A model generated the notes under the pieces. It searched no databases. It was not told the origin of the DNA and saw only the letters and a list, made by a program, of their open reading frames with translations. Of a stretch of DNA of 33,775 nucleotides, positions 2,750-23,678 are shown piece by piece (positions within the stretch are counted from its first letter, which is position 1; each line of letters starts with the position of its first letter). The translations under genes were made by a program, and so were the position numbers. The stretch comes from a virus (lineage: Duplodnaviria > Heunggongvirae > Uroviricota > Caudoviricetes). The stretch spans positions 1-33,775 of the IMG/VR virus record IMGVR_UViG_2671180456_000007. The stretch is one strand, 5' to 3'.

Positions 2750-5303
2750 TCTTGTTATTGACCTGAGTCTGGATGCTGTCCGTTTCGATGAGCAGATGAG
2801 CCGGGTAAGGCGTCATTTTTCAGGTCTGGATACCGACGCCAGAAAAACCGCCAGTGCTGTTGAACAGGGCCTGAGCCGCCAGGCGCTGGCTGCACAAAAA
2901 GCCGGGATTTCCGTCGGGCAGTATAAAGCGGCCATGCGAACCCTGCCCGCACAGTTTACGGATATCGCCACGCAGCTTGCCGGTGGTCAGAATCCCTGGC
3001 TGATCCTGCTGCAACAGGGCGGTCAGGTGAAGGACTCCTTCGGCGGGATGATCCCCATGTTCAGGGGGCTTGCCGATGCGATCACCCTGCCGATGGTCGG
3101 GGTCACCTCGCTGGCGGTGGCGACAGGTGCACTGGTGTACGCCTGGTACCAGGGAGATTCCACGCTTTCAGCGTTTAATAAAACCCTGGTTCTTTCCGGT
3201 AATCAGTCCGGACTGACTGCCGATCGTATGCTGACTCTCTCAAGAGCCGGGCAGGCAGCAGGGCTGACGTTTAACCAGGCGAGAGAGTCACTGGCAGCCC
3301 TGGTGAATGCCGGTGTGCGTGGTGGTGAACAGTTTGATGCCATCAACCAGAGTGTCGCGCGTTTTGCGTCTGCATCCGGTGTGGAGGTGGATAAAGTCGC
3401 TGAAGCCTTCGGGAAGCTGACCACTGACCCGACGTCGGGACTGATGGCGATGGCGCGCCAGTTCCGTAACGTGACGGCAGAGCAGATTGCGTATGTTGCA
3501 CAGCTGCAGCGTTCCGGAGACGAGGCCGGGGCATTGCAGGCGGCGAACGATATCGCCACGAAAGGCTTTGATGAGCAGACCCGTCGCCTGAAAGAAAACA
3601 TGGGAACACTGGAGACCTGGGCGGATAAAACAGGGAAGGCATTCAAATCGATGTGGGATGCCATTCTGGATATCGGTCGTCCGGAATCCTCAGCGGATAT
3701 GCTCGCCAGTGCGCAGAAGGCATTTGATGAGGCGGATAAAAAATGGCAGTGGTACCAGAGTCGGAGCCAGCGCCGCGGTAAAACCTCCTCTTTCCGGGCC
3801 AACCTTCAGGGCGCATGGGATGACCGGGAAAATGCCCGTCTGGGTCTGGCAGCGGCAACGCTGCAGTCGGATATGGAAAAAGCCGGTGAACTGGCGGCAA
3901 GGGACAGGGCTGAGCGTGAGTCGTCACAGCTGAAGTATACCGGAGAGGCGCAGAAGGCGTATGAGCGCCTGCTGACGCCACTGGAGAAATATACCGCCCG
4001 GCAGGAAGAGCTGAATAAGGCCCTGAAAGACGGGAAAATCCTGCAGGCGGATTACAACACGCTGATGGCGTCGGCAAAAAAGGATTATGAGTCGACGCAG
4101 AAAAAGCCGTCCGGTGTGAAGGTGTCTGCCGGTGAGCGCCAGGAAGACCAGGCGCATGCAGCCCTGCTGGCGCTTGAAACTGAGCTCAGGACGCTGGAGA
4201 AGCACAGCGGTGCGAATGAAAAAATCAGCCAGCAGCGCCGTGATTTATGGAAAGCGGAAAATCAGTATGTGGTCCTGAAAGAGGCCGCCACGAAACGGCA
4301 GTTATCTGAGCAGGAAAAATCCCTGCTGGCCCATGAGAAAGAAACGCTGGAGTACAAACGCCAGCTGGCTGAGCTGGGCGACAAGATTGAACACCAGAAA
4401 CGGCTGAATGAGCTGGCACAGCAGGCGGCGCGGTTTGAACAGCAGCAGAGCGCGAAGCAGGCGGCAATCAGCGCAAAAGCCCGCGGACTCACCGACCGTC
4501 AGGCGCAGCGGGAGTCGGAAGAGCAGCGCCTTCGTGAGGTGTACGGTGATAATCCGGCTGCGCTGGCGAAGGCCACATCTGCACTGAAGAACACCTGGTC
4601 TGCGGAGGAGCAGCTTCGTGGAAGCTGGATGGCCGGGATGAAGTCCGGCTGGGGCGAGTGGGCGGAAAGTGCGACGGACAGTTTTTCGCAGGTTAAAAAC
4701 GCGGCCACGCAGACCTTTGACGGTATTGCACAGAATATGGCAGCGATGCTGATCGGCAGCGAACAGAACTGGCGTGGTTTCACCCGTTCTGTGCTGTCCA
4801 TGCTGACAGAGATTTTTCTGAAGCAGGCGATGGTGGGGATAGTCGGGAGTATCGGCAGCGCCATTGGCGGTGCTTTCGGTGGTGGTGCGTCTGCCTCCAC
4901 GGGGACGGCCATTCAGGCTGCGGCGGCGAACTTCCATTTCGCGACCGGGGGATTTACGGGGACGGGGGGTAAATATGAACCTGCGGGGATTGTTCATCGC
5001 GGGGAGTTTGTCTTCACGAAGGAGGCGACCAGCCGGATTGGTGTCGGCAATCTGTACCGCCTGATGCGGGGCTATGCGGAAGGTGGTTATGTCGGCGGTG
5101 CCGGAAGTCCGGCGCAGATGCGGCGGGCGGAAGGCATTAATTTTAATCAGAACAATCACGTGGTGATTCAGAACGACGGCCCCAACGGGCGGGCAGGGCC
5201 GCAGCTGATGAAAGCGGTGTATGAGATGGCCCGCAAGGGGGCACAGGATGAACTCCGGCTGCAGTTGCGTGATGGCGGTATGTTATCAGGGAGCGGTGGA
5301 TGA
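2730..5303 (+). CDS. H: Tail tape measure protein H
   Basis: 857-aa ORF (lambda gpH is about 853 aa); lambda-like N-terminus MSQPVGDLVIDLSLDAVRFDEQMSRVRRHF and C-terminus; coiled-coil-rich middle. Confidence 0.9.
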   Translation: MSQPVGDLVIDLSLDAVRFDEQMSRVRRHFSGLDTDARKTASAVEQGLSRQALAAQKAGISVGQYKAAMRTLPAQFTDIATQLAGGQNPWLILLQQGGQVKDSFGGMIPMFRGLADAITLPMVGVTSLAVATGALVYAWYQGDSTLSAFNKTLVLSGNQSGLTADRMLTLSRAGQAAGLTFNQARESLAALVNAGVRGGEQFDAINQSVARFASASGVEVDKVAEAFGKLTTDPTSGLMAMARQFRNVTAEQIAYVAQLQRSGDEAGALQAANDIATKGFDEQTRRLKENMGTLETWADKTGKAFKSMWDAILDIGRPESSADMLASAQKAFDEADKKWQWYQSRSQRRGKTSSFRANLQGAWDDRENARLGLAAATLQSDMEKAGELAARDRAERESSQLKYTGEAQKAYERLLTPLEKYTARQEELNKALKDGKILQADYNTLMASAKKDYESTQKKPSGVKVSAGERQEDQAHAALLALETELRTLEKHSGANEKISQQRRDLWKAENQYVVLKEAATKRQLSEQEKSLLAHEKETLEYKRQLAELGDKIEHQKRLNELAQQAARFEQQQSAKQAAISAKARGLTDRQAQRESEEQRLREVYGDNPAALAKATSALKNTWSAEEQLRGSWMAGMKSGWGEWAESATDSFSQVKNAATQTFDGIAQNMAAMLIGSEQNWRGFTRSVLSMLTEIFLKQAMVGIVGSIGSAIGGAFGGGASASTGTAIQAAAANFHFATGGFTGTGGKYEPAGIVHRGEFVFTKEATSRIGVGNLYRLMRGYAEGGYVGGAGSPAQMRRAEGINFNQNNHVVIQNDGPNGRAGPQLMKAVYEMARKGAQDELRLQLRDGGMLSGSGG

Positions 5304-5629
5304 AAACCTTTCGCTGGAAAGTGAAGCCGGATATGGAGGTGAACTCGCAGCCATCGGTGCGTGAAGTGCGTTTTGGTGACGGGTACTCACAGCGTATGGC
5401 GGCAGGGCTGAATGCTGACCTGAAAACATACAGGGTGACGCTTTCCGTGACCCGGGAGGAGGCCCAGCATCTGGAAGCGTTCCTGGCAGAGCACGGTGGC
5501 TGGAAGGCATTTTTGTGGAAGCCACCCTATGCATACCGGCAGATAAAGGTGACCTGTGCCGGGTGGTCTGCGCGGGTCGGGATGTTGCGCGTTGAGTTCA
5601 GCGCGGAGTTTAAGCAGGTGGTGAACTGA
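5300..5629 (+). CDS. M: Minor tail protein M
   Basis: 109-aa ORF (lambda gpM is 109 aa), ATGA overlap with H; lambda-like sequence. Confidence 0.85.
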   Translation: MKTFRWKVKPDMEVNSQPSVREVRFGDGYSQRMAAGLNADLKTYRVTLSVTREEAQHLEAFLAEHGGWKAFLWKPPYAYRQIKVTCAGWSARVGMLRVEFSAEFKQVVN

Positions 5630-6327
5630 TGCAGGATATTCGCGAAGAAAGTCTGAACGAGTCGGTTAAGTCAGAGCAGTCACCGCGGGTGGTACTCTGG
5701 GAAATCGACCTGACGGTACAGGGTGGTGAGCGGTATTTTTTCTGTAATGAGCTGAATGAAAAAGGGGAGCCGGTCACCTGGCAGGGGCGTAAGTATGAGG
5801 CATACCCGATTGACGGCAGCGGCTTTGAGATGAACGGCCGGGGCAGCAGTGCCAGACCGTCGCTGACGGTGTCCAATCTGTTCGGTCTGGTCACCGGGAT
5901 GGCGGAAGACCTGCAGAGTCTGGTGGGGGCCACGGTGGTCCGCCGCCGGGTGTATGCCCGTTTTCTGGATGCGGTGAATTTCGTTGCGGGCAATCCGGAG
6001 GCGGACCCGGAGCAGGAGCTGAGTGACCGCTGGGTGGTGGAGCAGATGTCGCAGCTGACAGCCATGACGGCCTCGTTTGTGCTGGCTACACCGACCGAGA
6101 CGGACGGGGCGCTGTTTCCCGGTCGCATCATGCTGGCGAACACCTGTATGTGGGATTACCGGGGAGATGAATGCGGGTATAACGGTCCTGCGGTGGCGGA
6201 TGAGTTCGACAACCCCACCACGGATATCCGTAAGGACAGATGCAGCAAGTGCATGCGCGGGTGTGAACTGCGCAGGAATGTCGGCAATTTTGGCGGTTTC
6301 CTTTCCATTAATAAACTTTCGCAGTAA
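5629..6327 (+). CDS. L: Minor tail protein L (C-terminal cysteine cluster)
   Basis: 232-aa ORF (lambda gpL is 232 aa); C-terminal motif CMWDYRGDECGY...CSKCMRGC consistent with the Fe-S-binding cysteines of gpL. Confidence 0.85.
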   Translation: MQDIREESLNESVKSEQSPRVVLWEIDLTVQGGERYFFCNELNEKGEPVTWQGRKYEAYPIDGSGFEMNGRGSSARPSLTVSNLFGLVTGMAEDLQSLVGATVVRRRVYARFLDAVNFVAGNPEADPEQELSDRWVVEQMSQLTAMTASFVLATPTETDGALFPGRIMLANTCMWDYRGDECGYNGPAVADEFDNPTTDIRKDRCSKCMRGCELRRNVGNFGGFLSINKLSQ

Positions 6328-17381: not shown

Positions 17382-18164
17382 GTGCCAATTGTCGGTGTTC
17401 CCGGTTGGATTGGGTCTTCGGCTGTCAGTGTGACAGGCCAGAGATGGATGAGTGCGGCTCGAACGGCGGTGCAACTGCCAGCGGCTGGTTCAATGTCTCA
17501 AATGGCCGGGCGATCTAAAGAAGTTCAGTACAGCATCGGTGCGAATCATAACTACAACAAAGACACACTGATCAACTATTTAAAATCCCAGGGGGCGACG
17601 CCAGTCGTTGTTACCATTACAGGGGATCTGGTGTCGTACAGTAGCGGCGTGCCATGTTTAGATTTCCCGAGTTCACTTACCAACTCTTATATCAGCCTTG
17701 TAATCAACGCAGGTGTGACTGTCTATGGACGCGGTGGCAATGGTGGTAGTAACGCTGCCGGTGCTGCTGGTGGTAACGCAATTAATAATGGCATCGGTAC
17801 ACGCTTGCGTATTACGAATAATGGTGCAATCGCTGGAGGTGGTGGCGGCGGTGGCGGCGGTAACAGGGGTCGACTAGTATTTGGTGGTGGCGGTGGGTGC
17901 CCATTCGGTGCTGGTGGGTCTTCCTCTCATATGAGTTCCGGTGCAACTGCTGGTACTATTTCCGCTCCTGGTAAGGGATCTGTTGGTGAGGGGTCTCTTA
18001 GTGCATATACAGGCGGTTCGGGTGGTAATGTCGGTGCTGCTGGAGGAAGATGTAATACTCAAGGTAACGGTACAGAATATAACGGCGGGGCAGCTGGTAA
18101 AGCCGTAACTGGCAACGCGCCTACATGGACTAAAGCTGGGGCAATTTACGGCGCTCATGTGTAA
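17382..18164 (+). CDS. Glycine-rich tail fiber adhesin, gp38-like (T2/T6-type receptor-recognising protein)
   Basis: GTG start 7 nt after the RBS AAGGAG; N-terminus (M)PIVGVPGWIGSSAVSVTGQRWM resembles the T2-type gp38 N-terminus as I recall it; the C-terminal half has poly-Gly motifs (GGGGGGGGGNRG, GGGGG) alternating with variable segments; located directly downstream of the fiber gene. The start codon is uncertain. Confidence 0.5.
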   Translation: MPIVGVPGWIGSSAVSVTGQRWMSAARTAVQLPAAGSMSQMAGRSKEVQYSIGANHNYNKDTLINYLKSQGATPVVVTITGDLVSYSSGVPCLDFPSSLTNSYISLVINAGVTVYGRGGNGGSNAAGAAGGNAINNGIGTRLRITNNGAIAGGGGGGGGGNRGRLVFGGGGGCPFGAGGSSSHMSSGATAGTISAPGKGSVGEGSLSAYTGGSGGNVGAAGGRCNTQGNGTEYNGGAAGKAVTGNAPTWTKAGAIYGAHV

Positions 18165-18238
18165 GTACTTACCTACCAAGTGTGGGCGTTTTATGATATA
18201 AAACCGCCATCCCGATTTGACTTTTCATGGAGGAAAAC

Positions 18239-18562
18239 ATGTCGAACGAGATGGCGGGCGTTACAACAGAGCAAGTTGAGCGTATTGCCGCGATCGTTGC
18301 TCGGGAGGTTGTTGGCAAATTAGGTAAAGAGCTACGTGAAGAAATTGGCCAGGAGGTCAATGATCAGCTGAAAACCTACTTTGGTGATATGACCCCGGCG
18401 CAACATAGTATTCAACACTCCAATCTGGACAAACTCCTTAACCGGTTAGATTCCATCTCAAGTGGGTTCTTTGGCGGCATTGTTTCTAAAATAACGTCGT
18501 TCATTATTACCGCACTGCTTTTGGGGTTAGCCGCGTATGGCGTAAAAAGTGGACTGCAATAA
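18239..18562 (+). CDS. Small tail-anchored membrane protein (acidic N-terminal domain, single C-terminal TM helix); function unknown, possibly holin-like or antiholin-like
   Basis: ATG at 18239 has RBS GGAGG 5 nt upstream; C-terminal hydrophobic helix ITSFIITALLLGLAAYGV. Confidence 0.5.
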   Translation: MSNEMAGVTTEQVERIAAIVAREVVGKLGKELREEIGQEVNDQLKTYFGDMTPAQHSIQHSNLDKLLNRLDSISSGFFGGIVSKITSFIITALLLGLAAYGVKSGLQ

Positions 18563-18575
18563 CAGGAGATCAAGG

Positions 18576-19268
18576 ATGAAAACTCCGAGAGGCATTCGTA
18601 ATAACAACCCTGGCAACCTCGACAAAGGTTCGCCGTGGCAGGGGCTAATCGACAACCCTGCCGAACCGCGCTTTTGCACGTTTAAAGACCCTGTTTGGGG
18701 GATTCGTGCGCTGGCGGTGACTCTAATTACCTACCACGACAAACGTCGCGCAAAAGACGGCTCAAGTATCGATACCATTCGTGAAGTTATTGAACGTTGG
18801 GCACCGCCGAATGAAAACAATACTGACGCCTACATTAATGAGGTGTCTAAAGCCGTTGGTGTAACCGCAGACATGATTATCGATCTGCATGATTACGACA
18901 TTCTTCGACCTTTGGTTGAGGCAATCATTCGCCATGAGAATGGGCGAGGTCCGCTAAAAACGCTGAACACCTGGTATGCGGCAGAAGTTATTGAGGAAGG
19001 TCTGCGTCGAGCTGGCGTTGTTAAGCCGGCGAAAACCGTGAAGGCTGTTCCTGTAACTAAAGAAACCGCAGGCGCAACTGTTACAGCAGGTATTGGTCTG
19101 GCGCAGCTGGCCGATGTTATGCCGCAGGTTTCCGCTGCTATGGATAAAGCACAAGGTCATATCTCTAGCGGGGATACAGTACGCATCATCTTCGGTATTG
19201 CCACTATTGTTGTGGCAGGATTCATTGCCTGGTCGCAGGTAAGAAAACACCAGAAAGGGATGGTCTAA
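18576..19268 (+). CDS. Conserved phage protein with N-terminal GIRNNNPGNL motif and C-terminal TM anchor; candidate cell-wall-acting or lysis-associated protein
   Basis: ATG at 18576 has RBS AGGAG 7 nt upstream; motif RGIRNNNPGNL near the N-terminus; C-terminal TM helix IIFGIATIVVAGFIAW. Function inferred only from context. Confidence 0.5.
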   Translation: MKTPRGIRNNNPGNLDKGSPWQGLIDNPAEPRFCTFKDPVWGIRALAVTLITYHDKRRAKDGSSIDTIREVIERWAPPNENNTDAYINEVSKAVGVTADMIIDLHDYDILRPLVEAIIRHENGRGPLKTLNTWYAAEVIEEGLRRAGVVKPAKTVKAVPVTKETAGATVTAGIGLAQLADVMPQVSAAMDKAQGHISSGDTVRIIFGIATIVVAGFIAWSQVRKHQKGMV

Positions 19269-19269
19269 T

Positions 19270-19521
19270 ATGCTAGGCAGCCTGATGACAAAGCTAAAAG
19301 TTGCTTTGATTACGCTGGCTGCCGTTCTTTTCGTTCTTGTCGGCGCTTACACGATGGGCGGGAATGCGGCGCGACGAGCAATGGAAGAGAAGGCAAAACA
19401 GGAAGACAGAAAACGACTTCAAAACACAGTGAAAGTGGTGAATGAGACGAGCAGTAAAATACGTCAGAAAGATGCTTCTGCCGTTCATCGTGAGTTGTAT
19501 GATAAGTGGGTGCGTCATTAA
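19270..19521 (+). CDS. i-spanin-like (Rz-like) small inner-membrane protein
   Basis: 83 aa; N-terminal TM helix (LKVALITLAAVLFVLVGAY) followed by a charged, probably helical domain; another gene overlaps its 3' end in a different frame. Confidence 0.45.
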   Translation: MLGSLMTKLKVALITLAAVLFVLVGAYTMGGNAARRAMEEKAKQEDRKRLQNTVKVVNETSSKIRQKDASAVHRELYDKWVRH

Positions 19522-19657
19522 GCCACAAACCACTAGCGTGTTGTTCTGCGATGGCGCTGAACCTATTTATATCAGCAATGACGATGTAATGACCGAAGAA
19601 ACCGAACGCCAAATCCTTTTTCACAATACGATGGGAGAGAGAGTTTGCGGTTGGTGA
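19442..19657 (+). CDS. Outer-membrane lipoprotein overlapping the previous gene out of frame (o-spanin Rz1-like; alternatively a Cor/Llp-like superinfection-exclusion lipoprotein)
   Basis: Lipobox-like MISGC after a hydrophobic signal segment (MLLPFIVSCMISGC); starts inside the Rz-like gene in another frame and extends beyond its stop (overlapped spanin architecture). Confidence 0.45.
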   Translation: MRRAVKYVRKMLLPFIVSCMISGCVIKPQTTSVLFCDGAEPIYISNDDVMTEETERQILFHNTMGERVCGW

Positions 19658-19666
19658 TGTCGAAGT

Positions 19667-19684
19667 TCCCCTCAAATGAGGGGG
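19667..19684. terminator. Hairpin between convergent genes (stem TCCCCTC/GAGGGGA, loop AAAT); probable bidirectional terminator
   Basis: 7-bp GC-rich inverted repeat between the lipoprotein gene (+) and the GNAT toxin gene (-). Confidence 0.4.
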
Positions 19685-19689
19685 ACACA

Positions 19690-20211
19690 TTATTCTTCGA
19701 ACAATTTTTCGATAGATTTTGTAGAATAGAACAAAGAACGCTCGTTGTTACCAACCAGCTGGATAAAGCCCAAACTTTTATAAAACGCCCTGGCTTTATC
19801 GTTCAACGCCTCAACGAAAAGCCCATGAATGCCTACCGCAAGAGATGCATTGTACACAACACGCATTGCGTGAGTTACAAGCATTGAGCCAAGCCCCTGA
19901 CCTTGAAGAGATTTGTCCAAAGCCAGTCTGCCTAAAGTGATACTTGGGACATTCCGATAAGGCACTTTCTTTTGCTGACTCTTTGAAGGTAAGGTTTCTT
20001 TCTCAAAGCAGCTGCCTGACAAAGTGTAATAACCTAATACCTTTGGTATTTCTTCTTTAGTGCAAAGCACATAAGCGCGAAGAATTTTTCCTTCATGCTG
20101 TCTTTTTAAGTGGTTGGTCAAAAATGCGTTTAGTGACTCTTCGCCGCAATCAAAACCGTTTAGATCATAATCGTTCTCTCCAGAGAAAATCTCGATCGTC
20201 GTATTGCTCAC
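19690..20211 (-). CDS. GNAT-family acetyltransferase toxin (TacT/AtaT/KacT-like, tRNA-acetylating type)
   Basis: 173-aa ORF; acetyl-CoA-binding motif region GRLALDKSLQGQGLG; immediately downstream of, and co-directional with, a DUF1778-like antitoxin gene. Confidence 0.8.
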   Translation of the reverse strand: MSNTTIEIFSGENDYDLNGFDCGEESLNAFLTNHLKRQHEGKILRAYVLCTKEEIPKVLGYYTLSGSCFEKETLPSKSQQKKVPYRNVPSITLGRLALDKSLQGQGLGSMLVTHAMRVVYNASLAVGIHGLFVEALNDKARAFYKSLGFIQLVGNNERSLFYSTKSIEKLFEE

Positions 20212-20218
20212 GAGTAAA

Positions 20219-20488
20219 TTACTCCATGCTTTTCAGACGATTGGCAGCTCGTTTCAGCTTGTCGTTCGGTGCTGGAGGATTGCTTATAGCATCCATAACC
20301 AGATTCCAGGACTCTTCACTTAGAACCAGTCTACGGTGTTGCTCTATCACCTTCACGGCACGTTCGGATGCACTGCTAACCATGAACTGGGTAATGCTCT
20401 GGTTAGACATTGCGGCAGCTTCCTCGATGATGCTTTTATCGTCATCGGTTAATCTCAAATCGATGCGCTGCTTTTTCAGTGCGGACAT
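20219..20488 (-). CDS. DUF1778-family antitoxin (TacA/AtaR/KacA-like, ribbon-helix-helix)
   Basis: 89-aa ORF MSALKKQRIDLRLTDDDKSIIEEAAAMSNQSITQFMVSSASERA...; RHH-like N-terminus; 7-nt gap to the toxin gene. Confidence 0.8.
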   Translation of the reverse strand: MSALKKQRIDLRLTDDDKSIIEEAAAMSNQSITQFMVSSASERAVKVIEQHRRLVLSEESWNLVMDAISNPPAPNDKLKRAANRLKSME

Positions 20489-20543
20489 GTGTACCCCCTG
20501 ATGGCCGGTGATGTAGGAAGGCCATCATTGCTCTCTATTTAAA

Positions 20544-20637
20544 CTGAGTTTTCGACTCAAAGGTTATTTAACTGGGCTATAGCCCATTGCGTATGTGTCA
20601 TCAAATTGTGTACGGCAATTTACCGTACTCGTAATAT
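20544..20637. promoter_or_regulatory. Cluster of short palindromes in the parA/toxin-antitoxin divergent region (GGGCTATAGCCC at 20573-20584; GTACGG-N7-CCGTAC at 20619-20637; TGAGT-N5-ACTCA at 20544-20558): candidate operators or centromere-like sites
   Basis: Perfect inverted repeats read directly in the 320-bp AT-rich spacer between the divergent antitoxin and parA genes. Confidence 0.35.
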
Positions 20638-20807
20638 AGAGATGATTGTCACTTTTTTCAACAGACAAATGAAAACAGTTACTAGCAATAGGCAATAACA
20701 ACCTACTAAATAACCTTTACACCGCAGCCGTAGGCATTTAGGCTATATCACATATAAGAAAACAAGTTGTTTCAGACGATAATTATATACGCAAAGGGAA
20801 CTCTCCA

Positions 20808-21476
20808 ATGACCAAGATCTTTGTGGTTGGCGGCACAAAGGGCGGGCCTGGCAAATCCACTGTTGCCCAGCAAATTGCCGTTTGCCTGAAAGTCAAAAAG
20901 AAGAAGAAGGTTTATATCACTGATATAGATATTCAGCGCACGACAACAAGCTGGTGTGAAGACCGTAGACAGAACGAAGACCTTGAGCTGATTCCTTTTG
21001 CATACGTTCAGGATGACATCATTAAGCACCTAAAATCGCTTCAGGGTAGAGCTGAGTTTGTAGTGGTAGATGCTGGTGGCTTTGACTCCGAAATTCAGCG
21101 ACAAGCGATGCTGATGGCCGACGTTATCATTATCCCGCTTCGTCCTAAGCGTCGTGATTTGAAATCTCTGCGTGACATCGATCCTATTATCGACAATGTT
21201 CGTAATGTAAACGATAAAGTGAAGGTCCGCGCGGTCATGAACCAGTGCCCGGCTTTGCCATCACAAGTGTCTCGCATTCTGGCGGCTAAAGAGATTGTTG
21301 AGACGTTTGGCATCGAGTCTGCGCCAGTCAATCTATATAACCGCAACGTCTACGATGATGCGGAAGAGTCTGGTCGTTCTATCTTTGAAATGACCGGTAG
21401 CGAGCGCGACAAAAAGGCGGAAGCCGAGTTTGAAGAATTTGTAGATTATCTGTTGAGTCTGGAGGAAGAAGAATAA
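20808..21476 (+). CDS. parA: ParA/Soj-family partition ATPase (small, type Ib-like)
   Basis: 222 aa; deviant Walker A motif GGTKGGPGKST near the N-terminus; followed by a small RHH-like protein gene overlapping by 1 nt. Confidence 0.85.
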   Translation: MTKIFVVGGTKGGPGKSTVAQQIAVCLKVKKKKKVYITDIDIQRTTTSWCEDRRQNEDLELIPFAYVQDDIIKHLKSLQGRAEFVVVDAGGFDSEIQRQAMLMADVIIIPLRPKRRDLKSLRDIDPIIDNVRNVNDKVKVRAVMNQCPALPSQVSRILAAKEIVETFGIESAPVNLYNRNVYDDAEESGRSIFEMTGSERDKKAEAEFEEFVDYLLSLEEEE

Positions 21477-21835
21477 TGTCCATGAAAATGGGTGACCTAG
21501 CAAAGCGCAAAGAGCCTGATGCACCGGCCAAGAACACAACTCCTTTGCGCCAACCAGTCAGACCACAGGGACGCCCGACTCGTGGCAAAGAGAAAATTAA
21601 AAGCCGCACAATGTCACTGGAGGACGAATACTTCGAACTGCTGGAGATGATGAAGTTCATCCCTCGCTTCGAGAAGTTCACTCGTTCTGACGTGATTCGT
21701 GCTGCTATTTTCCATCTGGCAGAGAAGTCACCGCAGGAAATCGAGGACATCGTGAAATTGAATGAGGCGATCACCGCTGCCGATGTCACGATGCGTACCG
21801 ATGAAATCAAACGAGAGTTGATGAAGAAAGGTTAA
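21476..21835 (+). CDS. Small ParG-like centromere-binding protein (basic disordered N-terminal tail plus ribbon-helix-helix-like C-terminus)
   Basis: 119 aa; Lys/Arg/Pro-rich N-terminal 45 aa then ...KSRTMSLEDEYFELLEMM...RSDVIRAAIFHLA; TAATG coupling to parA. Confidence 0.55.
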   Translation: MSMKMGDLAKRKEPDAPAKNTTPLRQPVRPQGRPTRGKEKIKSRTMSLEDEYFELLEMMKFIPRFEKFTRSDVIRAAIFHLAEKSPQEIEDIVKLNEAITAADVTMRTDEIKRELMKKG

Positions 21836-21838
21836 AAA

Positions 21839-21873
21839 TTATGCATTGGCGCAATGTACGCGCCAATGCATAA
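21839..21873. terminator. Bidirectional terminator hairpin between convergent genes (14-bp stem TTATGCATTGGCGC/GCGCCAATGCATAA, loop AATGTAC)
   Basis: Perfect 14-bp inverted repeat located between the parG-like stop (21835) and the GIY-YIG gene stop (21888). Confidence 0.6.
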
Positions 21874-21887
21874 CTACAGTGTCAGCT

Positions 21888-22655
21888 TTATGCCGCGCTA
21901 ACACTATGTTCAGTCCTAACCACCCCAACCTTCACAAAAGGGCTACCGTAGCTTGGTGGCTTCTTGATTAATTTGCCTACATACAGTTTTCTAATATGCT
22001 CATCGGCTATTCTGCCAACAAATTCATAACGTTTTGTGTCGGGGCCAAGAGCTATATCCCTTGTAAAGTACTGCTGAGAACCGGCTTTGACCCAGCATTC
22101 AATCTGATAAACTTCCATTATTAGCCCACCATATGTAGAGTAGGCATATTTGAGATTCTCGTCTCTTGGAACCTTTGCCCATACGCCACGCGTAGCTTCA
22201 TATAATGCCAGAGCGGACATTCCTGACTTGTAGGTGCTGTTTAGCAGGAAGGCAAGACCGGCGTGCTCAGGAGCAATTTCAGTTTCCTCTTGCAGCACTA
22301 AGTGATGGTAGGCGTCCAGTGATATTCTGCCCATCATGGAACCACTTCCTCGTACCTTATTCGTAAGCTCTCCGACCCCCATAAGGTCGATGCATGTCGC
22401 CTCAACAAGTTTGGCTGTGGTTTCATCCATACCATGACGAAGTATATCTATGCCTAATTTTTTATTAGCCAAAAGTTCTTTGATCCGCATGGATTTGGGA
22501 GAGTCATCGGGATACTTGATGTGATCGAGACAACGAGTCGATTTGCCTTTTCCTATGTAAAACGGTCTTTTCATCTTGTCTTCTGTATCATAGAGACAGT
22601 AAACATAGTATTTAGCCTTATCCAATGATCTCGCGTATACCGATAAATCGTCCAT
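21888..22655 (-). CDS. GIY-YIG-family nuclease with a ~150-aa C-terminal domain of unknown function (stand-alone, opposite strand)
   Basis: 255 aa; N-terminal motifs KYYVYCLYD ... PFYIGKGKSTRCLDH match the GIY ... YIG ... R ... H pattern of GIY-YIG nucleases; the C-terminal domain (…WAKVPRDENLKYAYSTYGGLIMEVYQIECWVKAG…) was not recognised. Confidence 0.7.
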   Translation of the reverse strand: MDDLSVYARSLDKAKYYVYCLYDTEDKMKRPFYIGKGKSTRCLDHIKYPDDSPKSMRIKELLANKKLGIDILRHGMDETTAKLVEATCIDLMGVGELTNKVRGSGSMMGRISLDAYHHLVLQEETEIAPEHAGLAFLLNSTYKSGMSALALYEATRGVWAKVPRDENLKYAYSTYGGLIMEVYQIECWVKAGSQQYFTRDIALGPDTKRYEFVGRIADEHIRKLYVGKLIKKPPSYGSPFVKVGVVRTEHSVSAA

Positions 22656-22766
22656 TATTGCATCTCTTTGCTACTGACTAATGCGTTCTATTTTACACAT
22701 AAGTTTTTAATCAATTTAACAGGCTCAAAGTGTAGAGCTTCTGGGCGTCTAAGACGACAAGTTATG

Positions 22767-22821
22767 CCTGCTTCTGTATATATAAATAATAAGTAACTTA
22801 TTAAATATATACGGAAGCAGG
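22767..22821. repeat. Nested near-perfect palindrome (17-bp arms CCTGCTTCTGTATATAT / ATATATACGGAAGCAGG around a palindromic 21-nt AT-rich core); candidate operator, origin or cruciform
   Basis: Arms at 22767-22783 and 22805-22821 with one mismatch; the core AATAAGTAACTTATT is itself palindromic; lies in a divergent intergenic region. Confidence 0.5.
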
Positions 22822-22937
22822 TCTTTTAAAAGACACCACCAGAACAACTCCCTTCCGTTTCCACTTCCAAAAACTGCCACCAGTCGCTATCATCCGCTCA
22901 TCGTGATAAGTAAGTAACTACCTACCAGGTGAGCCAC

Positions 22938-23678
22938 ATGAGCCAGATCTTTTTCGATACCATCGACAACGACCAGTACGACTTCATGACAGAGTGGAAT
23001 ACCGCTGTTATGGACAAGTGGGTCGCTGAAAACATTGGTTTGTCGCGCTGTAAAGACGAGGCTGAACTCTTCGAGACGAAGTGGTTTGATTACCGCGACA
23101 TGCATCCTCTCATGGCCACCTGTCTTTTTACGGAGGCATACAAACGTCAGTACTCAAATATCATGCTGACGCACGGTCGCGAACACTTTGAAACAGCTCC
23201 GTTCACCACCGGGTTAAAACGTCTGCCTTATCAGGAGTTGTCGACTGCCAACAAAACGTCGCTATGGAAAGCACGCCAGTTTGCGGATCGCTATTGCTGC
23301 TCATACGACTACTTTATCTCCACCGTTCTTTCCGCAGCTGCACGACGACTGTGGGACAAGCTGCCGCGTCCGCAGCATTTGTGGCAGCCAGAACTGATTG
23401 AGATATTCGAAGAGAAATTAGCCAGACGCGCAACAACCCGTCTGGATGACTCTCTGGTTAGCTTTAAGCATATGGGAGACATGCAGTTCAACCCGATTCA
23501 GGAAAGCTATTTTGAGTGGATTCTGGAGCGTTTGCGCACCATCCCCCGCAGCAAGCGCATACGCGCAATTTTCTCCGCTATCTGGCTAATGGAAATCGTT
23601 CCAGAGCGCCTTATTTCCGCCCACTTTCCAGAAGAACTGGAAGAAGCACGGCGGTTTATTGATCCCCTATCTAATTAA
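22938..23678 (+). CDS. Hypothetical protein, first gene of the replication module (possible helicase loader or accessory factor)
   Basis: ATG at 22938 with RBS AGGTGA upstream (the ORF-finder start at 22929 is a GTG); 247 aa, no recognisable motif; immediately upstream of the helicase gene. Confidence 0.6.
   Translation: MSQIFFDTIDNDQYDFMTEWNTAVMDKWVAENIGLSRCKDEAELFETKWFDYRDMHPLMATCLFTEAYKRQYSNIMLTHGREHFETAPFTTGLKRLPYQELSTANKTSLWKARQFADRYCCSYDYFISTVLSAAARRLWDKLPRPQHLWQPELIEIFEEKLARRATTRLDDSLVSFKHMGDMQFNPIQESYFEWILERLRTIPRSKRIRAIFSAIWLMEIVPERLISAHFPEELEEARRFIDPLSN

Follow-up and report, generated by a model that had tools for sequence, protein, structure and literature searches.

The viral sequence considered here, IMG/VR record IMGVR_UViG_2671180456_000007 (33,775 nt, analysed over its whole length and called the window below), is, judging from its sequence, an SSU5/pHCM2-like phage-plasmid of Escherichia coli, and it carries a toxin-antitoxin cassette on the minus strand between its lysis genes and its partition locus. 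We read this cassette as a complete, autoregulated clade A GNAT/DUF1778 operon that the phage-plasmid holds as accessory cargo and that would act by post-segregational killing, and we consider this reading, taken as a whole, to be likely. It is very probable that the pair forms a functional module of the AtaRT/KacAT type, and with moderate confidence, by analogy with characterised relatives, we favour addiction as the main role of the cassette. A first-pass annotation of the same DNA had pointed to two minus-strand open reading frames (ORFs) in this place, and their positions are exact in a six-frame ORF list. It had taken them for a GNAT/DUF1778 operon of the TacAT/AtaRT/KacAT family with the antitoxin first, an assignment now backed by sequence comparison, the key residues and conservation of the operator. 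Every feature of the GNAT/DUF1778 family that can be looked for in sequence is present in the predicted pair. The features discussed below are collected in Table 1.

The putative toxin matches the Pfam GNAT family Acetyltransf_1 (E 1.6e-8), and its residues 1–172 align with the solved structures of AtaT (6GTS/6AJM, E 8e-78) and KacT (5ZGN/5XUN, E 9e-75), at global identities of 68.8% to AtaT and 65.9% to KacT. Toxins of this family are recognised by a loop of the form Q/R-x-x-G-x-G/A together with a catalytic tyrosine (Y144 in AtaT, Y145 in KacT), and in an alignment of six homologues the acetyl-CoA loop QGQGLG at residues 103–108, G108 and Y144 are invariant. The acetyl-CoA-binding motif named in the first-pass annotation is this loop; the same annotation had said that a lack of conserved catalytic residues on alignment would speak against its reading, and both Tyr144 and the acetyl-CoA loop are retained. 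RefSeq names the protein only as a “GNAT family N-acetyltransferase”, because NCBIfam gives only weak matches to generic GNAT models (RimI, MshD), all of them below cut-off. Such a name and such matches would suit an ordinary, non-toxic housekeeping or phage acetyltransferase whose upstream gene encodes a mere transcription factor. This explanation is extremely improbable. AtaT and KacT are matched over the full length, at 66–69% identity and E ~1e-77, far above the generic GNAT matches, the partner is a TacA/DUF1778 antitoxin with a C-terminus that aligns with the toxin-binding part of KacA and AtaR, and the operator is that of a toxin-antitoxin system. From the strength and specificity of these alignments, we take a non-toxic housekeeping acetyltransferase to be excluded.

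The putative antitoxin matches TacA1/DUF1778 in Pfam (E 3.5e-26) and aligns over its full length with the solved structures of KacA (2.5e-41) and AtaR (5e-40), at global identities of 78–79% to KacA and 75% to AtaR. It keeps R8, D10 and R12, which in KacA touch operator bases in the KacAT–DNA crystal, and mutation of which abolishes or weakens binding (PMC6698736). Among the residues that bind the toxin, M65 and I68 are kept, and positions 70 and 77 are N and K, as in AtaR. The annotation of Escherichia phage Cyrano gives a longer antitoxin gene of 306 nt. We rejected this form for the window and retained the 89-aa protein, because there is an in-frame TGA 13 codons 5' of the ATG and because KacA and AtaR begin at the aligned Met. 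The two genes lie on the same strand, antitoxin first, with 7 nt from the antitoxin stop to the toxin start, and GGAG is found 10 nt 5' of the toxin GTG. The GTG start and coupled translation probably keep the ratio of toxin to antitoxin low.

Upstream of the antitoxin gene lies a palindrome, GTACGG-N7-CCGTAC, that is found once in the window where 0.03 occurrences are expected by chance. The 27-bp operator that was crystallised with KacA4KacT2 is AAATGTACGGTTATTAACCGTACATGA (PMC6698736), and on alignment the half-sites and the spacing of the window operator are identical to it. The same motif is found 5' of ataRT, kacAT, two homologues on IncF plasmids and the copies in Cyrano, pEC16-2 and three viral contigs outside the SSU5 group; among 27 SSU5-like loci in IMG/VR, the operator is exact in 26 and has a single mismatch in the other. 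Next to it is a candidate sigma-70-like promoter. The promoter scan alone was at chance level (2 sites found against 2.7 expected), and we call this promoter not on the scan score but because its hexamers are conserved and because it adjoins the operator: in an alignment with Cyrano, the two IncF-plasmid homologues and kacAT, GTTGA at the -35 and CTATATT at the -10 are conserved, and the surrounding DNA is not. The antitoxin ATG lies far from the operator in the plasmid-borne copies and close to it in the others that we compared. The distance is 121 nt in the window and in pEC16-2, 120 nt in Cyrano, and 112 nt (L005, 3791–3902) and 120 nt (L006, 3806–3925) in the IncF homologues, compared with 26 nt in ataRT of O157:H7 (L008, 2225–2250) and 30 nt in the kacAT copy examined (L004, 2239–2268). 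The extra leader of the plasmid and phage-plasmid copies is poorly conserved. That the 121-nt leader might be a riboswitch or other structured RNA was considered and dropped (fold z = -1.6, not significant; no Rfam match at E <= 1). With promoter, operator, leader, antitoxin and toxin in place, the predicted operon is complete.

At the other end of the predicted operon, a GC-rich hairpin followed by ACATTATTCT sits in the 32-nt gap between the convergent stops of Rz1 (19657) and the toxin (19690). It looks like an intrinsic terminator of the plus-strand lysis operon. On the minus strand there is no T-run after the hairpin, so whether it also terminates the toxin-antitoxin transcript is uncertain, and these transcripts may run on antisense into the spanin genes.

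By alignment, the window pair forms a lineage of its own, at about the same distance from AtaRT, KacAT and the lineage on IncF plasmids, and it is marked by the long leader, which is common to other plasmid-borne copies, and by the GTG start of the toxin. It shares with AtaR–AtaT of E. coli O157:H7 (6GTS, 6AJM, 6AJN) the antitoxin-first bicistron, Y144, G108, the QGQGxG loop and GTACGG-N7-CCGTAC beside the promoter. However, ataRT is chromosomal, lies between panM and livJ (O157:H7 SS17), has its operator 26 nt from the start codon and starts its toxin with ATG, whereas the window pair is phage-plasmid cargo whose leader has 121 nt and whose toxin starts with GTG, and DNA identity between the two is ~64.5%. 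With KacA–KacT of Klebsiella pneumoniae (5ZGN, 5XUN), the pair shares R8/D10/R12, the operator half-sites and the 7-nt spacing; it differs in that the toxin contacts Q70 and R77 of KacA are N70 and K77 in the window antitoxin (as in AtaR), in the central spacer of the operator, and in the leader, which is 30 nt in kacAT.

For function, the nearest model is GmvAT of the Shigella flexneri plasmid pINV, a GNAT/ribbon-helix-helix pair whose low-copy host plasmid carries par systems as well. GmvAT stabilises this plasmid, and also a test vector, through post-segregational killing that depends on Lon (PMC6519299). The proposed likeness is one of function and setting; pINV is not a phage, and the GmvAT effect depended on temperature (21 °C). 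A second precedent is phd/doc of the phage-plasmid P1. Doc is a Fic-type kinase acting on EF-Tu, and the protein families and toxin biochemistry of phd/doc are unrelated to a GNAT acetyltransferase. What the two would have in common is that phd/doc is an addiction module of a plasmid prophage and shows conditional cooperativity (PMC6698736, PMC7969092). The shell genome of the SSU5 group has also been listed as including toxin-antitoxin systems (PMC7969092). Given phd/doc and this listing, the placement of the window pair is ordinary. The first-pass annotation had singled out the placement in a phage genome as the notable aspect; addiction modules are expected on phage-plasmids, and annotations of the genes already exist for Cyrano and for over 140 plasmid records. 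Our literature search found no paper describing the present toxin-antitoxin pair in a phage-plasmid.

The identity of the host element is clear from its relatives. Over positions 18001–23000, the window is 99.4% identical to pEC16-2, a 111.8-kb circular, non-mobilizable plasmid; its identity to Cyrano is 94.7%, and it shows synteny with Salmonella phage SSU5. This identity and synteny, together with the adjacent parA, indicate a low-copy, vertically inherited extrachromosomal replicon, which is the setting that plasmid addiction requires. The lysis-like genes on one side and partition locus on the other that the first-pass annotation described are indeed there (18227–19657, and a ParA/MipZ-type ATPase gene at 20808–21476), and the depositors of Cyrano named the corresponding genes, which lie between ParA and the Rz1 spanin gene, “KacT Acetyltransferase-type toxin” and “putative antitoxin”. 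Comparison by blastn with relatives that lack the pair delimits the cassette: pECOH89 matches at 19000–19641 and 20712–21833, and SSU5 matches up to 19639 and again from 20711. The left limit is therefore at ~19641, in the last codons of Rz1, and the right limit at ~20712, 96 nt 5' of parA. In the same slot, SSU5 and pECOH89 have two plus-strand genes, for proteins of ~140 aa and 233 or 257 aa (L002, SSU5, 4787–5943; L007, pECOH89, 3189–4366). A Pfam search with the two SSU5 slot proteins found no family, and PADLOC gave no match to any of the four proteins encoded in the slots of SSU5 and pECOH89. The Rz1–parA slot is a recombination hotspot with alternative cargo. Transposition or site-specific insertion was considered and rejected, as repeat finding over 19600–20850 returned only the operator, the hairpin and matches of chance size, with no flanking repeats, direct or inverted; the boundaries look like plain homologous replacement.

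The cassette is optional, and where present it always lies between Rz1 and parA. In PLSDB, it is present in 143 of the 661 records matching the region, and Escherichia (E. coli, E. fergusonii, E. marmotae, E. albertii) accounts for nearly all of the cassette-bearing records listed, next to one Enterobacter sp.; for the Klebsiella, Enterobacter, Salmonella and Cronobacter relatives, only the parA side matches. A scan of 5,426 complete E. coli genomes gave 152 records with the cassette at >=90% identity, and ~1,627 chromosomal places (~30% of genomes) with ataRT-like copies at ~64.5% DNA identity. In the phage collection, it occurs only in Cyrano and two “CMS-2020a” records, and in IMG/VR there are 27 SSU5-like loci, all with the gene order Rz, toxin, antitoxin, ParA. 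Conjugative IncF plasmids and other mobile contexts harbour more distant homologues (66–73% toxin identity), with neighbours that include ParA/ParM genes, a DNA methylase and, in one viral contig, a lambda-type integrase gene.

Two alleles of the cassette occupy the same slot, distinguished by the operator spacer, which is TAAATTG in the window type and TGATATG in the Cyrano type. Between positions 19690–20711 of the window and Cyrano (L001, 6291–7311), the coding DNA is 91.6% identical and the leader and promoter 80%, compared with 99.1% for parA and 96% for the endolysin gene in the flanks. At the protein level, the antitoxins differ at 2 residues and the toxins at 11. Synonymous divergence (dS) between the alleles reaches 0.47 in the toxin gene and 0.27 in the antitoxin gene, with ratios of nonsynonymous to synonymous divergence (dN/dS) of 0.062 and 0.035, respectively, and in all 27 IMG/VR phage-plasmid loci both ORFs are of full length and the toxin has its GTG start, Y144 and the acetyl-CoA motif. 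Because dN/dS is low despite a dS of 0.27–0.47, and because the ORFs are intact in 27 of 27 loci, the comparison indicates strong purifying selection on toxin and antitoxin. In the IMG/VR loci (the L009–L038 set), the window-type allele usually adjoins an Rz protein that is only 69% identical to that of the window, and the Cyrano-type loci have an Rz that is 96–100% identical to it. The window itself has the less common allele beside the lysis genes that are usual for the other allele. As combinations of allele and flank are shuffled, the cassette moves by recombination independently of the backbone.

Such movement could also be that of a selfish hitch-hiker, which brings no benefit to the phage-plasmid and persists as it is hard to lose and recombines between elements. 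The optional presence of the cassette (the 143 of 661 related plasmid records, nearly all Escherichia) would fit this view, as would the two alleles ~8% apart in one slot between flanks that are 96–99% identical, where the shuffled combinations speak for exchange independent of the backbone, and the related cassettes that are found on IncF plasmids and chromosomes and, beside a lambda-type integrase gene, in one viral contig. However, strong purifying selection on both genes and the operator argues that activity is maintained, and there is no conflict with the mechanism proposed below, since a selfish toxin-antitoxin pair still stabilises its replicon. As an account of the cassette in its own right, we give the selfish explanation little credence.

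The mechanism that we favour, addiction of the host cell to its plasmid prophage, is drawn from the homologues. A heterohexamer of four antitoxins and two toxins (A4T2, arranged T-A2-A2-T) would bind the palindrome over the transcription start and repress the operon, and an excess of toxin would destabilise the complex and relieve the repression; conditional cooperativity of this kind regulates KacAT (PMC6698736). Free toxin would acetylate the alpha-amine of charged elongator tRNAs, namely Gly-tRNA and those with hydrophobic residues (Trp, Tyr, Phe, Met). In vivo, AtaT and KacT, both of clade A, acetylate Gly- and hydrophobic aminoacyl-tRNAs, an activity that Pth counteracts (PMC9177977); at 66–69% toxin identity, the exact range of tRNA targets could differ. 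Acetylation would stall elongation and so arrest growth. In a daughter cell without the plasmid prophage, the antitoxin would be degraded, by Lon if GmvAT is a guide, and not replenished, and the remaining toxin would halt the growth of the cured cell, providing a backup for the adjacent ParA system.

Several points weigh against addiction as proposed. Toxicity, neutralisation, tRNA targets and plasmid stabilisation would all be carried over from homologues, to which the toxin is 66–69% and the antitoxin 75–79% identical. SSU5, pECOH89 and most SSU5-like elements of Klebsiella, Enterobacter and Salmonella persist without the cassette, so that it is not required for maintenance. In addition, stabilisation by GmvAT was seen mainly at 21 °C and was not significant at 37 °C (PMC6519299), and because of this temperature dependence the size of any addiction effect is uncertain. 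Chromosomal ataRT, which is present in ~30% of complete E. coli genomes and has the same operator half-sites, might cross-repress or cross-neutralise the pair and thereby blunt addiction. Summary counts for the co-occurrence of plasmid-borne copies with chromosomal ataRT, with phage-plasmid and IncF copies pooled, were only roughly consistent with independence.

The surroundings of the cassette bear on another explanation, that it is mainly an abortive-infection module against phages or competitors, in which infection by a second phage would deplete the labile antitoxin or stop host transcription, and the freed toxin would block translation early enough to keep the invader from finishing its cycle. 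Phage defence is known for other toxins that target tRNA and for several type II toxin-antitoxin systems, which counts in favour of this idea. Just after the par genes lies a second variable slot (~21834–22756), in which the window has a homologue of PD-T4-3, a single-gene anti-phage system in PADLOC, with a GIY-YIG-like N-terminus; Cyrano and pECOH89 instead have a DUF2971 protein that matches PDC-S31 (E ~1e-41), and some IMG/VR relatives have neither PD-T4-3 nor PDC-S31. This exchange of defence or candidate defence genes across the par locus would extend the idea, making the cassette and the defence gene on the other side a small defence island, and PD-T4-3 has been reported in E. coli phage-plasmids of the SSU5 group (bioRxiv 10.1101/2025.09.12.675607). 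The first-pass annotation had also raised abortive infection as a possibility, and our searches gave it no support. Neither toxin nor antitoxin matches a PADLOC family at E <= 0.01, whereas the neighbour at 21888–22655 does (PD-T4-3), and our literature search found no report of the GNAT/DUF1778 family acting against phages or in abortive infection. The alternative occupants of the Rz1–parA slot are without defence annotation as well, and on a compact mobile element a neighbouring defence gene counts for little. We therefore regard a primarily defensive role as unlikely.

A mixed account is similarly doubtful, namely that the cassette is an addiction module and at the same time part of a region for defence and competition around the par locus, with the long leader, specific to the copies on mobile elements, and the two co-circulating alleles reflecting the sensing of infection or conflict with related elements. 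Such conflict could include cross-talk with chromosomal ataRT acting as an anti-addiction locus. What the comparisons do establish is that, in E. coli SSU5-like phage-plasmids, exchangeable cargo slots lie on both sides of the par locus, one for toxin-antitoxin or unknown genes and the other for defence genes.

The par locus itself (20808..21835) is transcribed divergently from the toxin-antitoxin promoter. For the second protein that it encodes, of 119 aa, searches found no Pfam family and no Protein Data Bank (PDB) relative. In Cyrano, this gene is labelled a “RelE/ParE putative toxin”, a label that has no support in Pfam or PDB and is probably wrong. A ribbon-helix-helix-like stretch can be recognised by eye at residues ~44–85; this stretch and the position of the gene suggest a ParG-like centromere-binding partner of ParA. 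Three further ORFs, 19310..19690 (minus strand, 126 aa), 20124..20501 (plus strand, 125 aa) and 19645..19887 (plus strand, 80 aa), were treated as non-coding, because they overlap the well-supported Rz/Rz1 and toxin-antitoxin genes.

Table 1. Predicted features of the toxin-antitoxin cassette and its neighbours, with positions in the window
Feature	Position	Strand	Description
Toxin gene	20211..19690	-	GTG start; 173 aa; GNAT aminoacyl-tRNA N-acetyltransferase homologue (AtaT/KacT, clade A)
Antitoxin gene	20488..20219	-	ATG start; 89 aa; AtaR/KacA homologue
Antitoxin parts		-	N-terminus ribbon-helix-helix, C-terminus toxin-binding region (Pfam and PDB alignments)
Leader	20489..20609	-	121 nt, operator to antitoxin ATG; Shine-Dalgarno AGGGGG at 20494-20499
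Operator palindrome	20610..20628		GTACGG-N7-CCGTAC; 4 nt 3' of the -10, over the expected transcription start
Sigma-70-like promoter	20661..20633	-	-35 TTGAAA, 17-nt spacer, -10 TATATT; 10/12 consensus positions
Optional cassette	19642..20711		1.07 kb, between Rz1 and parA; limits approximate
GC-rich hairpin (inverted repeat)	19665..19686		9 pairs, 6 of them G-C, then ACATTATTCT
Lysis cassette	18227-19657	+	Holin, endolysin, Rz, Rz1 (Cyrano and SSU5 annotations)
ParA/MipZ-type ATPase	20808-21476	+	222 aa; Pfam MipZ, AAA_31, CbiA, ParA
119-aa partner gene	21476-21835	+	Overlaps the parA stop codon
PD-T4-3 homologue	21888-22655	-	255 aa; PADLOC E 6.5e-23, nearly full length; Pfam LEM-3_GIY-YIG 5.5e-7

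Taken on its own terms, the window pair adds little that is new, and current understanding of these systems is unchallenged by it. It documents a phage-plasmid lineage of the AtaRT/KacAT clade, in which the toxins are 66–69% identical to characterised ones and the operator is fully conserved. Its use lies in the annotation of clinically common elements that can carry CTX-M-15, and in studies of plasmid curing and plasmid stability.

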